Of a stretch of DNA of 9,689 nt, positions 2,501-9,562 are shown piece by piece (position 1 is the stretch's first letter; each line of letters starts with the position of its first letter). Made by a program: the position numbers and the translations under genes. Under the pieces are notes generated by a model. It saw only the letters and a list, made by a program, of their open reading frames with translations. It was not told where the DNA came from and made no database searches. Source of the stretch: a virus (taxonomy: Duplodnaviria > Heunggongvirae > Uroviricota > Caudoviricetes); IMG/VR virus record IMGVR_UViG_3300026224_000016; one strand, given 5' to 3'.

Positions 2501-3478
2501 TCACCAGTTGAAGTTCGTTGAACCGTAGTCCTGCTCACTGAATCCCGAGATCGGGAGGCCGGTAGTTCGCCCACCTCCGGGAGCGGCTGGCTGTTGCCAG
2601 GATTCCTCGAAATGGCGATCGGGTCCAAAGAACGTCGCGGCCTGCTTCACGAACTGTGTGCCTGTATTTCCTGTAGCACGTACCCAGGCGGCATACCGCT
2701 TCACACCATCAAGCATGGTCTCCGGTTTTATTCCCTCCCTGATACGGGCTTTCCAGGCTTTGAAGGCTGCTGACTTGGAATTGCCACCAGCACGTTTGGG
2801 ATATTCCTGCCAGGCCTGTTCAAATTCCGGTGAATATTCCTGTCGGGCAGAACGCGCTGGTGCAGACGCGTCAGCGGATGCGCCAATAGTGTTTTTAGTC
2901 TCCGTTGTAATCTCTGTAGTAATCTCTGTATTTGTATCAACATTCGGCGTATCCCCTGTTCCGTTATGACGTTGGGGGGTGTTCCGTTTTAACGTAATAG
3001 CTGTATCGCTGATTGCGTTATTGCTGTTACTTTCTGGCGAAACAGAAGAAGGAGTAGTAATGGCAGCAATTGCCTGTGGGTTGATCCCGACAAACAAAAT
3101 ATTGCTGCATTTCACACCATCGAGCATTTCCACCGTGCGTAAATCCAGGGAAATAAACCCGGCATCACGAAGGCGCTTCAACGCATCCGCGGTTTCCCTT
3201 TTCCCGAAACCAAACTGCTCAGCAAACGCCTGATAACTTCTTTGCAGCTTGTCCCCCTGAAAACGCTTGCGATATCCCAGCAAAGCCCCGGTATGCTCAT
3301 CCCTGACTTCTGTCGGGCGGTACCAGTAAACGATCTCTGAGAGCAGGGCGATAGCGGTCGCATCCGGACGACCACTGGGTAGCCGAATATGTTTCCACCA
3401 GTTCGCTGGTGTGACATTGCCGGAAATATTAATTTGACCAATAGCTATAACTTCCGGTGTGGGGGCGTAACGACTCAT
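2501..3478 (-). CDS. phage replication initiation protein (O-like replisome organiser, 325 aa)
   Basis: Sits immediately upstream of the loader and helicase genes. Two-domain layout with a low-complexity linker (NTEITTEITTETK) encoded by tandem DNA repeats, as in lambda O where ori lies in the linker-coding region. Start ATG 3478 overlaps the upstream stop (ATGA). Family call is from architecture, not a search. Confidence 0.7.
   Translation of the reverse strand: MSRYAPTPEVIAIGQINISGNVTPANWWKHIRLPSGRPDATAIALLSEIVYWYRPTEVRDEHTGALLGYRKRFQGDKLQRSYQAFAEQFGFGKRETADALKRLRDAGFISLDLRTVEMLDGVKCSNILFVGINPQAIAAITTPSSVSPESNSNNAISDTAITLKRNTPQRHNGTGDTPNVDTNTEITTEITTETKNTIGASADASAPARSARQEYSPEFEQAWQEYPKRAGGNSKSAAFKAWKARIREGIKPETMLDGVKRYAAWVRATGNTGTQFVKQAATFFGPDRHFEESWQQPAAPGGGRTTGLPISGFSEQDYGSTNFNW
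2907..2930. repeat. perfect 12-bp tandem direct repeat GTAATCTCTGTA x2 inside the initiator gene; candidate origin iterons
   Basis: Read directly: 2907-2918 and 2919-2930 are identical, followed by a partial third unit (TTTGTATC). A second imperfect repeat pair GTTCCGTTATGACGTT (2958-2973) and GTTCCGTTTTAACGTA (2981-2996) lies just downstream, 13/16 identical. Confidence 0.6.
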
Positions 3479-3774
3479 ACAGCCTCCTTACGCGGCATAA
3501 CAATGGTGTAACCCCGGGCAGGCTGGAGCCGGGCTTTTGCATCAATAGTGAGCGTTGCAATTTTTCGGATACGCAGATACCCTGCCCTTTCCAGGGTCAG
3601 GGTTTCTCTGAACATTGCCTGTTTTGAACAGCAACAAAAATCGGCAAGGACCTGGTGATCAATAACCCTCTCACCTTCACCGTCTGAAGAACCCGACATC
3701 AAAACACGCAACATAATCAGGCGCTGAATCGGATTATCGAAAACACTTCCGCATACAAACTGAAAACAGTTCAC
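3475..3774 (-). CDS. hypothetical protein (99 aa), possible small DNA-binding regulator
   Basis: GTG start at 3774 preceded by SD GGGAGG with a 6-nt spacer. Start overlaps the upstream stop (GTGA) and its stop overlaps the initiator start (ATGA at 3475-3478). A possible helix-turn-helix segment (QVLADF...ERAGYLRIRK) is by eye only. Confidence 0.55.
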   Translation of the reverse strand: MNCFQFVCGSVFDNPIQRLIMLRVLMSGSSDGEGERVIDHQVLADFCCCSKQAMFRETLTLERAGYLRIRKIATLTIDAKARLQPARGYTIVMPRKEAV

Positions 3775-3995: not shown

Positions 3996-4654
3996 GGGCG
4001 CACTTCCCATTGATTACGGCGGAAAGCAGTGTGATTCAGGCTGGTTTCAGCCTCATGGAATGCTTCAATGCAGCTCTCGTAGTACCGCATTGTGCGCAGA
4101 CTTAACCCAAGCTGAAGCATCATCAGACCATCAAGGGTGATGTAATAACCACGCAGGGAATCGCCATACACGTGGTAAGTACCCGGAATGAAATTACGGG
4201 AGAAGAATTCACGTGAGCAGTTCAGATACTCGATTTTGTCGACGATGTTCTGGTGCATGCGCTTAAAGTGGCAGGCAACATGCAGGGAGAAAATAACAGC
4301 TTTGCCGTTGACGACTTCGATTTTCAGGTATGGGGAAGTTGGGACTGTAGCCATGATGGCAGCCTCCGTATGCAATGGATAACTTCCACCACCGGAAACG
4401 CCAATTTCACTGGTGGTGAACTGAACGGGGTTGGCGTAACCGGCGCATACGGAAACCGGCGCATCTTTCGATGCCCCCGCCCAGCCCACCATAATCTGGA
4501 TGTGAGCAAATGCGGACGATAAAAAAGACGCTGGCGCGTCGTATATCGCCGTATGCAATTCCAGGACGCCAATCCCGGCACCCGCTTTATAAGGTGCCAG
4601 AACAGTGTAACGTCCCGAAATTGCAGAATCAATATTTAGGCTTGAAACATTCAT
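3992..4654 (-). CDS. hypothetical protein (220 aa)
   Basis: Long ORF with protein-like composition, co-oriented with and coupled into the replication operon. Weak or absent SD upstream of ATG 4654. No motif recognised. Confidence 0.6.
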   Translation of the reverse strand: MNVSSLNIDSAISGRYTVLAPYKAGAGIGVLELHTAIYDAPASFLSSAFAHIQIMVGWAGASKDAPVSVCAGYANPVQFTTSEIGVSGGGSYPLHTEAAIMATVPTSPYLKIEVVNGKAVIFSLHVACHFKRMHQNIVDKIEYLNCSREFFSRNFIPGTYHVYGDSLRGYYITLDGLMMLQLGLSLRTMRYYESCIEAFHEAETSLNHTAFRRNQWEVRP

Positions 4655-6277: not shown

Positions 6278-6293
6278 TATCGGAAAGCCGATA
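6278..6293. promoter_or_regulatory. 16-bp palindrome TATCGGAAAGCCGATA in the cro-cI intergenic region; candidate operator
   Basis: Inverted repeat TATCGG-N4-CCGATA read directly, lying between the divergent cro and cI starts, where lambdoid OR operators occur. Confidence 0.45.
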
Positions 6294-6327: not shown

Positions 6328-7020
6328 ATGACATTTTCAGAACGACTTGATTTAGCTATGCGCAACGCAAAATTTACGCAAGGTAGGCTGGCCAAAGAAG
6401 TGGGTATGGCTCAGTCCAGTGTCAATCAACTACTTAACAAAGCCAACGGTTCCAGAAAAACAGTCGAAATAGCAAAAGTTTTGGGCGTTAACCCGGAATG
6501 GCTCGCATCGGGTGTTGGCCCAATGGAAATCGTGACCTCTGCAGACTCACACCAAATACGTAACATTTCTGAAGATTGGGTTACTGATTCGTATGTCGTG
6601 GATGTTTTAGACATCAGATATAGTTGCGGACCTGGTAGTTATAACTCTGATTTTCCTGACATTGTCAGATCTATAGCGATAGAACCAGGATACGCATCAA
6701 GAGTTTTTGGCGGCAGGCCAGCATCAGCAATCAAAGCAATAAACGCCCACGGCGACAGTATGAAAGGCACAATAGACCCTGAAGACTTGGTATTTGTAGA
6801 TGTATCAGTTCGCACATTTAATGGTGATGGTATATACGCCTTTACATACTCTGGAACATCGCACATCAAAAGACTTCAAAAAATCAAAGATACTCTAACG
6901 GTGATATCTGACAACCCAGCTTACAAGGATTGGGCTATCGAACCGGAAGACTTCGAACAACTTCACATTGACGGAAAAGTAATTGTCAGTTGGCCCATGA
7001 CACTACACCGTTTTGCATAA
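6328..7020 (+). CDS. cI: CI-like prophage repressor: N-terminal XRE-type HTH plus C-terminal LexA/S24 autopeptidase domain (230 aa)
   Basis: HTH FTQGRLAKEVGMAQSSVNQLLN. S24 catalytic signatures: Ser in AHGDSMKG and Lys in HIKRLQK. SD GGAGG 9 nt before ATG 6328. Divergent from cro. Confidence 0.9.
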   Translation: MTFSERLDLAMRNAKFTQGRLAKEVGMAQSSVNQLLNKANGSRKTVEIAKVLGVNPEWLASGVGPMEIVTSADSHQIRNISEDWVTDSYVVDVLDIRYSCGPGSYNSDFPDIVRSIAIEPGYASRVFGGRPASAIKAINAHGDSMKGTIDPEDLVFVDVSVRTFNGDGIYAFTYSGTSHIKRLQKIKDTLTVISDNPAYKDWAIEPEDFEQLHIDGKVIVSWPMTLHRFA

Positions 7021-7038
7021 GCAAAAATCATTTAACCC

Positions 7039-7064
7039 GCCCACTCTTAAGTGGGCTTTTTTTT
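7039..7064 (+). terminator. rho-independent terminator downstream of cI
   Basis: Stem GCCCACT (7039-7045) / AGTGGGC (7050-7056), loop CTTA, followed by eight T residues (7057-7064), 19 nt after the cI stop. Confidence 0.8.
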
Positions 7065-7085
7065 GGAAAAAAATCGATAAACCGA

Positions 7086-7114
7086 TTGACAGACAAAATC
7101 GGCAAACCTATTAT
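7086..7114 (+). promoter_or_regulatory. sigma70-like promoter for the accessory cassette, with flanking repeats
   Basis: -35 TTGACA (7086-7091), 17-nt spacer, -10 TATTAT (7109-7114). Direct repeats AAATCGATAAACC (7071-7083) and AAATCGGCAAACC (7096-7108) flank the -35, and CCGATT (7082-7087) / AATCGG (7096-7101) form an inverted pair. Confidence 0.55.
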
Positions 7115-7163
7115 CATGGCATAGGTATCGAACTCACCAAAGCAATTATAGAGGATGAGAAAA

Positions 7164-7661
7164 ATGTCATCGTATATGGGGTTACCAACAAATCAGCACG
7201 ATGCTCTTGAGAATATTCAACTCTTAGTAGGGGCTGGTGCACTACTGTATAGCAGCAATAATCCTGAGTTAATTGAACTTGCCAGCTCCATCCTGGCTGT
7301 AACTCAAAAATACAGCCTCACCGCGTCGCGTTTATGCAAACAAAATTTAGCTATTAATTCCCAGAATCGGATTCGCACCCAACGCGAAGCCTGCGGCTTA
7401 ACAACCGCCGAACTCGCCAGGCTGCTCGATCTCGATGAAGAAATTATCATCCAGTGGGAGAGCGGAGAGTATGAACCAACTATCAGTATGCTTATCCCAC
7501 TGGCAAATATTCTTGGCTGCGATCCGATGTGGCTGTTAACTGGCGAAGTTACTCCTCCGGAGCAACCAAAAAGTGAGGAGCAGCAACACCATGACGCATC
7601 TCAACAAGTTTGCTCCTTATCTCGCGAAGCTCTTCTACGGAAGAACCAATACCAATGGTGA
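7164..7661 (+). CDS. HTH (XRE/Cro-C1-type) DNA-binding protein with an uncharacterised N-terminal domain (165 aa)
   Basis: C-terminal half has a classic XRE HTH (LTTAELARLLDLDEEIIIQWESGEYEPTISMLIPLANILGCDPMWLLTG). The roughly 75-aa N-terminal region matches nothing I recognise. Start chosen at ATG 7164 (SD GAGGA, 8-nt spacer). Confidence 0.7.
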   Translation: MSSYMGLPTNQHDALENIQLLVGAGALLYSSNNPELIELASSILAVTQKYSLTASRLCKQNLAINSQNRIRTQREACGLTTAELARLLDLDEEIIIQWESGEYEPTISMLIPLANILGCDPMWLLTGEVTPPEQPKSEEQQHHDASQQVCSLSREALLRKNQYQW

Positions 7662-7789
7662 CATAATCGCCGCTTCGCCCCTCAAGGTACATGCGAACAT
7701 TTTTATCAATCATTGCGGAAACAGTCTCAATATGAAAACACTTCTGAGACTCGCTATATAGCAGAACATATAAGTCAGCTGAGGAAGCC

Positions 7790-8155
7790 ATGAAAAAGTT
7801 CGAAAACATAACTGTTCTCCATGTTGATGACTTTGATTATACAAACCCGGAACCTCTCCCGGAGGTTGTAAAGGCAATAGATGTTGCCGATATAGTGATT
7901 AGAGGAAAGAGAATTGTCAAAAACAGGCTCGCATGCACTTCAGGAGCAATGACAAAAACAACCTCACAACAAGATGATTATGAAGGCATTTGTCTGGAGC
8001 CGGACTCATTTGCGGTAAATGTTTATCATTTATTGCATGCAACACAGGTATTACATATGTCCAGTAATCACGAAACAAAAACACTTGGCAGCGAAATTCT
8101 GAATTTTGCATGTGAATATGCAAAAGCTGCTGCCGAAAAAGAATTAGCGCAATAA
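7790..8155 (+). CDS. hypothetical protein (121 aa)
   Basis: ORF with SD GAGGAAG immediately upstream of ATG 7790, co-oriented with the HTH gene. No motif recognised. Confidence 0.6.
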   Translation: MKKFENITVLHVDDFDYTNPEPLPEVVKAIDVADIVIRGKRIVKNRLACTSGAMTKTTSQQDDYEGICLEPDSFAVNVYHLLHATQVLHMSSNHETKTLGSEILNFACEYAKAAAEKELAQ

Positions 8156-8353
8156 CAACAAATATGCCATGAACGTTTATTACGGTTTTATCGCCGGGGA
8201 TTGTTGCAACCTTTATTCATAGAGGTAACTCAGTTATGACTTTCCTGAAAAATAAGGCATCGTATAAAACTGCCTGCCTCATTGCACAACATGGAGATTC
8301 TTATCTTCATATAGCCAACCTGTATTTGCGCAAAGCATATGGGAGATAAATAA

Positions 8354-8542
8354 ATGAAAGAAAAACAACAGAACATAACACATGAAAAAGTAAGAGTGTT
8401 GTTGACCATTGAAAATGGGAAAGTGATTTACTCAAAACATCTGTCGGATGATGAATTCGTTGGCTGCATGGATACATTTCTGTGGATGGTAAAAAGAGCG
8501 GGTTACACGATTATTCCACCAGCAAAGGAACAAACATTATGA
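8354..8542 (+). CDS. hypothetical small protein (62 aa), translationally coupled to the downstream gene
   Basis: SD GGGAGA (8341-8346) 7 nt before ATG 8354. Its stop overlaps the next gene's start as ATGA at 8539-8542. Charged, soluble-looking. Confidence 0.55.
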   Translation: MKEKQQNITHEKVRVLLTIENGKVIYSKHLSDDEFVGCMDTFLWMVKRAGYTIIPPAKEQTL

Positions 8543-9120
8543 ATTATTCAGAGTTCCGACCAGAAGTTACGCCACATGGCATAAAAATTGGCAATACAAC
8601 CATTGATTATGTTGAGGCCGTACAGCGACTTAATGATGGTGAATACGATTATCCAAACTCACACGGTTTAAGAATCATGCAATGTATTGCTGAAGCCGAT
8701 GATGCAGGGTTGCTGGGACGATTTTCAGTCGATATGAAAGTTGCTCAATGGCGATGGCTGTATGTGACTACGTTTATAAATGAAGAGAAAGACAAGAACG
8801 GTACCGTTGATATCCCTAACGATAATGGAACTACAGATCGCGCAGTTATTTACAAGGGGAAACATGGTTGCCTGAGTATCTACCCCGGACCACTTCGCAT
8901 TGCCCTGCAAAACCATGTCGAATGGGGATTTATTGAAAAATATGGCGAAGCTGAAGGCATGGGGCGAGTTCTGTTTCTCTATCAAAAAATGCTCATCGCA
9001 GATCCTGATAATGGTTTCATTATCTCTGCTATGGGGCGCGAAGGGCTTGAACTCCTTCTGGATGAAATGATTCACGATCTGAATACTCATGGTATGCCAG
9101 AAGCGCCAGTGACACATTAA
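8539..9120 (+). CDS. hypothetical protein (193 aa)
   Basis: Start set to ATG 8539 (SD AAGGAA, ATGA overlap with upstream stop) rather than the track's 8482. No nucleotide-binding or catalytic motif recognised by eye. Confidence 0.65.
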   Translation: MNYSEFRPEVTPHGIKIGNTTIDYVEAVQRLNDGEYDYPNSHGLRIMQCIAEADDAGLLGRFSVDMKVAQWRWLYVTTFINEEKDKNGTVDIPNDNGTTDRAVIYKGKHGCLSIYPGPLRIALQNHVEWGFIEKYGEAEGMGRVLFLYQKMLIADPDNGFIISAMGREGLELLLDEMIHDLNTHGMPEAPVTH

Positions 9121-9127
9121 ATATTAA

Positions 9128-9152
9128 GAAGAATATAATTCTTCCGTTTTTT
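9128..9152 (+). terminator. terminator-like hairpin closing the accessory cassette
   Basis: Perfect inverted repeat GAAGAAT (9128-9134) / ATTCTTC (9138-9144), loop ATA, then CG and TTTTTT (9147-9152). The stem is AT-rich, so strength is uncertain. Confidence 0.4.
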
Positions 9153-9165
9153 ACTAACCGTTTAT

Positions 9166-9273
9166 ATGAAAAGCAACCGTGAATTAAGCAGAGTAAAACT
9201 GATTTTAATCCTTGCCACAGTGCTGACACTAACTGAAATCATTATTCTCTTTATTGCGCTGTCAGTCGGTTAA
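9166..9273 (+). CDS. candidate small hydrophobic single-pass membrane peptide (35 aa)
   Basis: My own translation: MKSNRELSRVKLILILATVLTLTEIIILFIALSVG, a charged N-terminus followed by one hydrophobic helix. No SD, and below the track's length cutoff, so this is tentative. Confidence 0.25.
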   Translation: MKSNRELSRVKLILILATVLTLTEIIILFIALSVG

Positions 9274-9296
9274 AAATATCGGGATACCACAGACCA

Positions 9297-9485
9297 ATGA
9301 GACTGTATTTCACAATAGTAATTTTACTGGCAATTATCGCATGCATTTACGGATTACTCGTTCCGTTCCTTATATCCATGAAGGATACGATAGCAGTTAT
9401 TTCTGGCTTTGCACTGGCGTTTCTGACCCCGCCCTGCATTTATGCCATTTACAAGGGTCTTTCTTTCACTAAGGATAAAAGATGA
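9297..9485 (+). CDS. small membrane protein, two predicted transmembrane helices (62 aa)
   Basis: Strongly hydrophobic product (IVILLAIIACIYGLLVPFLI and AVISGFALAFLTPPCIYAIY). Stop overlaps the downstream lipoprotein start (ATGA at 9482-9485). Weak SD. Confidence 0.45.
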   Translation: MRLYFTIVILLAIIACIYGLLVPFLISMKDTIAVISGFALAFLTPPCIYAIYKGLSFTKDKR

Positions 9486-9562
9486 AAAAAATTATTTTTG
9501 CTTTAGCCATTGTTCTGCCGACTATTGGCCTTGTCGGTTGCGATCGCGTTGAACCAGGTAAT
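9482..9562 (+). pseudogene. small lipoprotein gene, 5' portion only, interrupted by an IS903-group insertion
   Basis: SD AAGGA then ATG 9482. Product MKKIIFALAIVLPTIGLVGC-DRVEPGN has a signal peptide with lipobox LVGC. The reading frame runs into the IS inverted repeat at 9563 and stops at an IS-derived TAA (9575-9577). Confidence 0.5.

Follow-up and report, generated by a model that had tools for sequence, protein, structure and literature searches.

Overlapping small and large genes of a phiP27-type prophage as probable cassettes of a predicted early-left operon

The immunity region and its predicted early-left promoter

The two genes considered here lie on the plus strand of a 9,689-nucleotide stretch of viral DNA, the whole of which was analysed ('the window'). 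The small gene (62 aa; phiP27 L07; phrog_340) occupies positions 8354-8542, with its TGA stop at 8540-8542, and the large gene (193 aa; phiP27 L06; phrog_1515) runs from an ATG at 8539-8541 to position 9120. They share the stop/start overlap ATGA (8539-8542). Judged by its gene content, the window represents the immunity and replication region of a phiP27-type lambdoid E. coli prophage. Its minus strand carries DnaB-like, DnaC-like, O-like, Rha-like and cro-like genes. The plus strand encodes, in order, a cI-like repressor, a helix-turn-helix (HTH) protein, a 121-aa protein, the pair, small membrane proteins and the start of an SPFH lipoprotein. Between about 7370 and 9560 the window shares 95% identity with phage phiP27, in which the pair belongs to a series of genes from L10 to L03 that leads on to xis and int. 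The same layout is found in an E. coli prophage with 97% identity over 7000-9560, whose gene string likewise continues to an excisionase and an integrase. A place between the cI-like repressor gene and xis/int, on the repressor strand, is what is expected of accessory genes of a pL operon.

The cI-like gene (6328-7020, plus strand), which encodes an HTH and a peptidase-S24 (LexA/S24) domain, is followed directly by a terminator-like hairpin at 7039-7056 with a 7-bp stem, five GC pairs and then TTTTTTTT. Next comes a predicted pL-like sigma-70 promoter at 7086-7114 (TTGACA-17-TATTAT, 11/12), the best promoter match in the region and also on the plus strand. Operator-like repeats of the type AATCG-N6-CGATT, at 7072-7087 and 7097-7112, overlap its -35 and -10 elements and form part of tandem 18-nt repeats with the sequences AATCGATAAACCGATT and AATCGGCAAACCTATT. 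A related palindrome, TATCGGAAAGCCGATA, is located at 6278-6293 in the cro/cI intergenic region. The AATCG-N6-CGATT pattern as such is not enriched over chance in the window, and the assignment of these repeats as operators is based on their position and on the tandem 18-nt repeat.

The pair begins about 1.3 kb downstream of this putative repressor-controlled promoter, beyond the genes for the HTH ('CII-like') protein (168 aa, 7155-7661) and the 121-aa protein (7790-8155). A promoter and terminator scan of the plus strand found no terminator-like site from the promoter to position 9120, and the sole other promoter-like site before that point is a weak one (9/12) at 7949-7978, inside the 121-aa gene. 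Just 3' of the large-gene stop, a weak AT-rich hairpin followed by UUUUUU (9128-9152, plus strand; 7 bp, -4.9 kcal/mol, z = -2.06) is absent from the output of the terminator scan and is possibly a leaky terminator.

An antisense reading frame of 86 aa (phrog_6104, the phiP27 L09 gene) is present on the minus strand at 7549-7809, inside the predicted early-left transcript, and shares 113 nt with the 3' end of the HTH gene (168 aa). The NCBI PGAP annotation makes no such call in the homologous E. coli prophage. Because this frame lies between the pL-like promoter and the pair, a separate promoter serving position 7790 onwards is possible. BLASTP relates the C-terminal half of the 121-aa protein to the N-terminal region of the HTH regulator of 168 aa (33% identity over 39 aa, E = 0.002). 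Both match phrog_4587 and phrog_4836, and the common region may be a duplicated domain.

The pair is flanked by several short reading frames on the same strand. An unannotated 37-aa frame (MTFLKNKASYKTACLIAQHGDSYLHIANLYLRKAYGR; 8236-8349), here called orf37, ends 4 nt before the small-gene ATG. It has its own Shine-Dalgarno sequence (GAGG), and its product has a pI of 9.8. This frame is conserved at the protein level in 91 of the 115 related loci described below, including those of Citrobacter, Phytobacter, Raoultella, Salmonella phage Fels-1 and a Klebsiella phage, and it is annotated in the last of these. It matches no PHROG family, and immediately 5' of orf37 and the small gene the scan found nothing promoter-like. 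The frame probably encodes a real micro-protein that heads the gene string. On the other side of the pair, a 35-aa hydrophobic frame (MKSNRELSRVKLILILATVLTLTEIIILFIALSVG; 9166-9273; no PHROG match) and a gene for a 62-aa membrane protein (phrog_1130; 9297-9485) precede the SPFH-domain lipoprotein gene and together look like a small membrane module. The SPFH gene (phiP27 L05) starts at 9482 in an ATGA overlap with the gene for the 62-aa membrane protein. One end of an IS5-family (IS903-like) element interrupts it at about 9563/9564, and the element reaches the end of the window (9689). L05 of phiP27 is labelled 'serine protease' in old records.

This neighbourhood could be read as lysogen-expressed cargo in which the pair acts with the downstream membrane-peptide and SPFH genes in superinfection exclusion or anti-phage defence, in the manner of lambda rexAB and sieB. 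The genes do follow the repressor gene on its own strand, the next genes encode small membrane proteins and an SPFH lipoprotein, and in a Klebsiella phage an SPFH gene is found directly 5' of the large gene, which it overlaps by 4 nt. However, the terminator-like hairpin after the cI-like gene and the repressor-operator-type promoter, both predicted, argue that the pair would be repressed in a lysogen. The large gene occurs without an SPFH gene in most loci, and in the window the IS element has destroyed the SPFH gene but left the pair intact. Defence models from PADLOC-DB 2.0 yield zero matches for both proteins at E values up to 1. Such an exclusion role is very improbable.

The small/large junction and the two proteins

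The initial annotation had the stop of the 62-aa frame falling within the start codon of the 193-aa frame, and this is borne out by the open reading frame coordinates and by the PGAP annotation of the 97% identical prophage. The listing of open reading frames offers a longer version of the large gene (212 aa, from a GTG at 8482), and the same start is used in the old phiP27 record, which describes both genes as encoding hypothetical proteins and gives both upstream starts (67 aa and 212 aa). Homologues of the large protein align from the Met codon at 8539 onwards, and in the 97% identical E. coli prophage PGAP calls the same two genes, of 189 nt and 582 nt and overlapping by 4 nt. A Shine-Dalgarno sequence for the large gene, AAGGA (8525-8529), resides within the small reading frame 9 nt 5' of the ATG; that of the small gene, GGGAG (8341-8345), resides within orf37. 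The junction in 56 related loci reads AAAGGAG or AAAGGAA, N9, ATGA, and loci with a spacer in place of the overlap carry GAGGA.

Both products match PHROG profiles over their full length, the small protein with phrog_340 (E = 1.3e-24, residues 2-61) and the large protein with phrog_1515 (E = 1.4e-92, residues 1-193). Estimates of dN/dS against relatives (Nei-Gojobori) are 0.04-0.42 for the small gene and 0.09-0.20 for the large gene. Taken together, these comparisons indicate that the two genes are real, conserved and under purifying selection.

Overlaps of this kind are not unusual here, since PGAP places 4-nt overlaps at 5 of the 18 same-strand junctions that it annotates in the homologous region of the E. 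coli prophage. Others in the window include those at 3475-3478, 3771-3774 and 9482-9485. Seen against these neighbours, the ATGA overlap is the routine packing style of the operon and no mark of a dedicated partnership. Translational coupling from the small to the large gene is nonetheless plausible, because the 3' end of the small gene contains both the large-gene start and its Shine-Dalgarno sequence, and the scan found no promoter-like or terminator-like site between them. Of the tight stoichiometric co-expression that had been proposed, the coupling can therefore be retained as plausible, but a dedicated stoichiometric pair is not supported, since adjacency is limited to one lineage.

The small protein is predicted to form a beta-hairpin followed by a helix (beta-beta-alpha). 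No antitoxin-type DNA-binding domain (HTH, RHH, AbrB or Phd) was found in it. A relationship to anti-repressors was considered but not confirmed: the weak PHROG matches concerned are to the C-terminal parts of anti-repressor families, with E values near 1e-3, and hhalign against a neighbouring anti-repressor gives a probability of 0.4%. The family of the small protein is much the wider of the two: phrog_340 comprises 505 clusters at 90% identity, whereas an exhaustive search of 1.84 billion representatives with the large-protein profile found only 139, at 50% identity.

The large protein is acidic (pI 4.9), soluble and alpha/beta, without a hydrophobic segment. Structure prediction gives a confident model except for a C-terminal tail with pLDDT below 50, and a fold search with this model found no known relative. 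Among 59 diverse family members, only G34, D37, W73, R120, E128, Y148, G166 and a C-terminal His are near-invariant. The C-terminal end, G-M-P-x-x-P-V-x-H, is conserved yet predicted to be disordered, a combination that suggests a docking element rather than an active site. Red-beta, Erf and Sak usually occupy a pL position, and the large protein might be imagined as a divergent single-strand annealing or recombination protein of this kind. It shows no fold or profile similarity to the Rad52/Sak, Red-beta or Erf families, and this identity was rejected as extremely unlikely.

Neither protein had been seen to carry a Walker motif, an HTH or a catalytic signature, and this agrees with searches of Pfam, NCBIfam, PADLOC and PDB sequences using single sequences and profiles of both, which returned nothing significant. 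Both PHROG families are labelled 'unknown function', and a search for papers on phiP27 L06 and L07, their protein accessions or their PHROG identifiers yielded nothing relevant. The genes are already annotated as hypothetical proteins and PHROG members, and no characterised family includes them. In several Klebsiella phage records (MN166823, MK416014, MF695815 and others) the large homologue bears a name that no search supports and that looks like a propagated annotation error.

Gene order among relatives

A set of 115 loci was scanned with gene-family HMMs. It comprises annotated phage and E. coli records, 16 species-representative genomes, 80 IMG/VR contigs and contigs with diverged small homologues. 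Loci whose large protein is at least 67% identical to that of the window are referred to as the Escherichia clade. In all 84 of these the small gene adjoins the large gene upstream, with a 4-nt overlap in 56, a 5-nt spacer in 27 and a 14-nt overlap in one. The closest described relatives are the orthologues in phiP27 (P27p07 and P27p06; 90% identity for the small and 91% for the large protein), which have the same order, the same 4-nt overlap and the same flanking genes. Stx1a-, Stx2a- and Stx2d-converting phages carry a diverged version with a 5-nt spacer (small protein 56%, large protein 71% identical).

Beyond the Escherichia clade, in 16 species-level loci from other Enterobacterales, the two genes are adjacent in none; the small gene is 411-1442 nt upstream in six and undetected in ten. 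The recurrent order is orf37, phrog_1737, the small gene (phrog_340), ParE_like, phrog_1886 and the large gene (phrog_1515), and the genes 3' of the large gene are an ORF6N/Rha anti-repressor gene and phrog_37628 or phrog_3007. The three intervening genes of the first string are missing from the window and likewise from the phiP27/Stx lineage. Variation on this theme is common. The large gene is packed no less closely against other upstream neighbours: it overlaps phrog_1886 by 4 nt in two loci (L008 and L012), and its upstream neighbour is ParE_like in Yersinia and Rha-like in Providencia. The small gene occurs without a large gene in Salmonella phage Fels-1 and in widespread prophages of Salmonella/Citrobacter and of Enterobacter. 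Such mosaic gene content among related phages, with cassettes present, absent or reordered, is again what is expected of accessory genes of a pL operon. By this comparison of gene orders, the recurrent arrangement is ancestral, and the small-large adjacency is a lineage-specific, derived state.

Other E. coli prophages have the order small, ParE_like, large, with a small protein 74% and a large protein 46% identical to those of the window. DNA homology between the small gene of the window and the ParE_like-linked version ends directly after ...CCACCAGCA (codon 57), which places a recombination joint at that point. The variable C-terminal tail of the small protein and the ATGA junction itself are therefore products of cassette exchange or deletion.

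These observations bear on the suggestion that the two proteins form a dedicated interacting pair, as toxin and antitoxin, effector and immunity protein or chaperone and client, whose gene overlap enforces a fixed stoichiometry. The overlap with its internal Shine-Dalgarno sequence, the order of a small gene before a larger one, the constant adjacency in Escherichia-type loci and the correlated divergence of the two genes (r = 0.91) would all suit such a pair, as would the occasional frameshifted large genes (P0034 and P0066). Constant adjacency and correlated divergence are also explained by shared descent within Escherichia. The pair is split by intervening genes even in E. coli, either gene occurs without the other, and in the other species the two are never adjacent, with the small gene undetected in most of their loci. 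Nor is there a promoter-like site right upstream of orf37 and the small gene; the nearest is the weak match inside the 121-aa gene. The large protein resembles no toxin family or fold and has no PADLOC match. A dedicated pair appears quite unlikely.

The initial annotation had favoured a toxin-antitoxin, effector-immunity or sensor-effector type of pair, and had named co-occurrence in other genomes and homology and fold searches as ways to check it. Neither check upholds it: the partners are apart or alone outside the Escherichia clade, and no toxin, antitoxin or defence family or fold was found for either protein. With respect to type II modules in particular, adjacency across lineages is confined to the one clade, neither protein belongs to a recognised toxin family or fold, and a DNA-binding antitoxin with its own autoregulated promoter is not seen. 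The pair fails in every toxin-antitoxin feature that can be assessed computationally. Its likeness to ParDE and RelBE modules consists of a small gene overlapping a downstream gene, and in relatives the small gene overlaps a ParE_like gene. The window differs in that it has no ParE_like gene, its 193-aa protein is no known toxin, there is no promoter-like site just 5' of the pair, the small protein lacks a DNA-binding antitoxin domain and the partnership is not conserved.

The ParE_like gene raises a different possibility, that the small protein is its functional partner, as antitoxin or regulator, and was orphaned in the window by deletion of ParE_like, the large gene being unrelated. The ParE_like protein (72-73 aa) matches PF24732 with E values near 1e-19. 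Where both genes are present they are, Rahnella apart, always adjacent, and a 29-nt overlap is seen in the gene calls checked (L008, 5180-5564; L102-L106; L111-L114, with L111 at 4001-4403). The C-terminal tail of the small protein, moreover, changes exactly at the ParE_like junction. However, in several species ParE_like directly follows phrog_1737 without the small gene between them: in Rahnella the small gene is about 1.2 kb further upstream, and in Yersinia, Phytobacter and Pantoea no small gene was detected. The small gene is found without ParE_like in Fels-1, in L012 and throughout the phiP27 clade, where purifying selection on it persists. The 'ParE-like toxin domain' is a Pfam label only, and the small protein has no antitoxin-type DNA-binding domain. 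This explanation is doubtful.

A probable place among early-left accessory genes

The arrangement is best explained if the small and large genes are ordinary cassettes of an early-left (pL-type) operon and not a dedicated pair, a reading to which we assign a probability of about 60%. When the cI-like repressor is inactivated, transcription would start at the predicted promoter (7086-7114) and continue across the genes for the HTH and 121-aa proteins, orf37 and the pair. On terminating at the small-gene UGA, ribosomes might re-initiate at the overlapping AUG, aided by the AAGGA 9 nt upstream; alternatively, the large gene could be translated from this Shine-Dalgarno sequence in its own right.

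The counterpart of this arrangement in lambda and Stx phages is the set of exo-xis genes (orf60a, orf61, orf63, orf73, ea8.5 and ea22). They occupy the same position, from the immunity region to xis/int on the early-left transcript, and like the pair they are small, tightly packed, mosaic and dispensable-looking. Non-essential exo-xis genes of lambda and Phi24B are expressed at very early times and alter lysogenisation and induction (PMC3824215, PMC4195576, PMC8614690). No exo-xis family is among the Pfam and PHROG scan matches of the pair, which are strong only for phrog_340 and phrog_1515 and include a few weak matches to other PHROGs. The likeness is positional and organisational only.

By analogy, both products might be independent, soluble, non-enzymatic early accessory proteins that act through protein binding, adjusting host physiology, anti-defence or the choice between lysis and lysogeny in the manner of the non-essential lambda pL genes and exo-xis genes. 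The large protein would then be likely to dock through its disordered G-M-P-x-x-P-V-x-H tail. This functional assignment is our best guess, held with much less confidence than the cassette reading itself, and it is the weakest step in the proposal: it draws on position and analogy only, and no sequence or fold link from either protein to a characterised early protein was found. A more specific variant has the large protein founding a new fold family that docks on a host or phage target via its tail, for example in anti-defence or host takeover, and the small protein separately being the cognate partner of ParE_like. This combination is unlikely, slightly more so than the ParE_like partnership considered above.

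For the cassette reading, the main consequence is the removal of a false lead, in that an ATGA overlap in a phage operon is no evidence for a toxin-antitoxin-like pair; otherwise its significance is very small. The comparison also documents a mosaic string (orf37, phrog_1737, phrog_340, ParE_like, phrog_1886, phrog_1515) in Enterobacterales prophages, including Shiga-toxin phages. Were any protein of this string found to govern induction, anti-defence or host takeover in Stx phages, it would have a bearing on toxin production. The points of possible value are the orphan-fold 193-aa protein and the small/ParE_like overlap in relatives. If the small/ParE_like pairing were real, it would constitute a new toxin-antitoxin-like module, and survival of the small gene here without ParE_like would imply a second, ParE_like-independent role, possibly with the 193-aa protein.

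Some further observations concern the range and the unusual members of the large family. Judged by genome and phage searches, its hosts are mainly Enterobacterales, together with an Aeromonas phage. Two non-enterobacterial records, OM284015 (Elizabethkingia phage EKP1, 46% identity) and L017 (a Paenochrobactrum MAG, 37% identity), also contain large homologues, for which host mis-assignment or contamination is possible. Longer representatives with extra sequence (P0108, P0189, P0143 and P0223) offer no functional clue. In P0189 a large homologue is joined to a head-morphogenesis protein in what looks like an assembly or gene-calling chimera. P0108 (336 aa) is a fusion of phrog_1515 with phrog_37628, a family that is likewise uncharacterised in function, and may be a Rosetta-stone indication that the two are functionally linked, or else a read-through artefact. 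As a separate gene (112-116 aa), phrog_37628 is found directly 3' of the large gene in L017 and L020 and within about 300 nt of it in L006.
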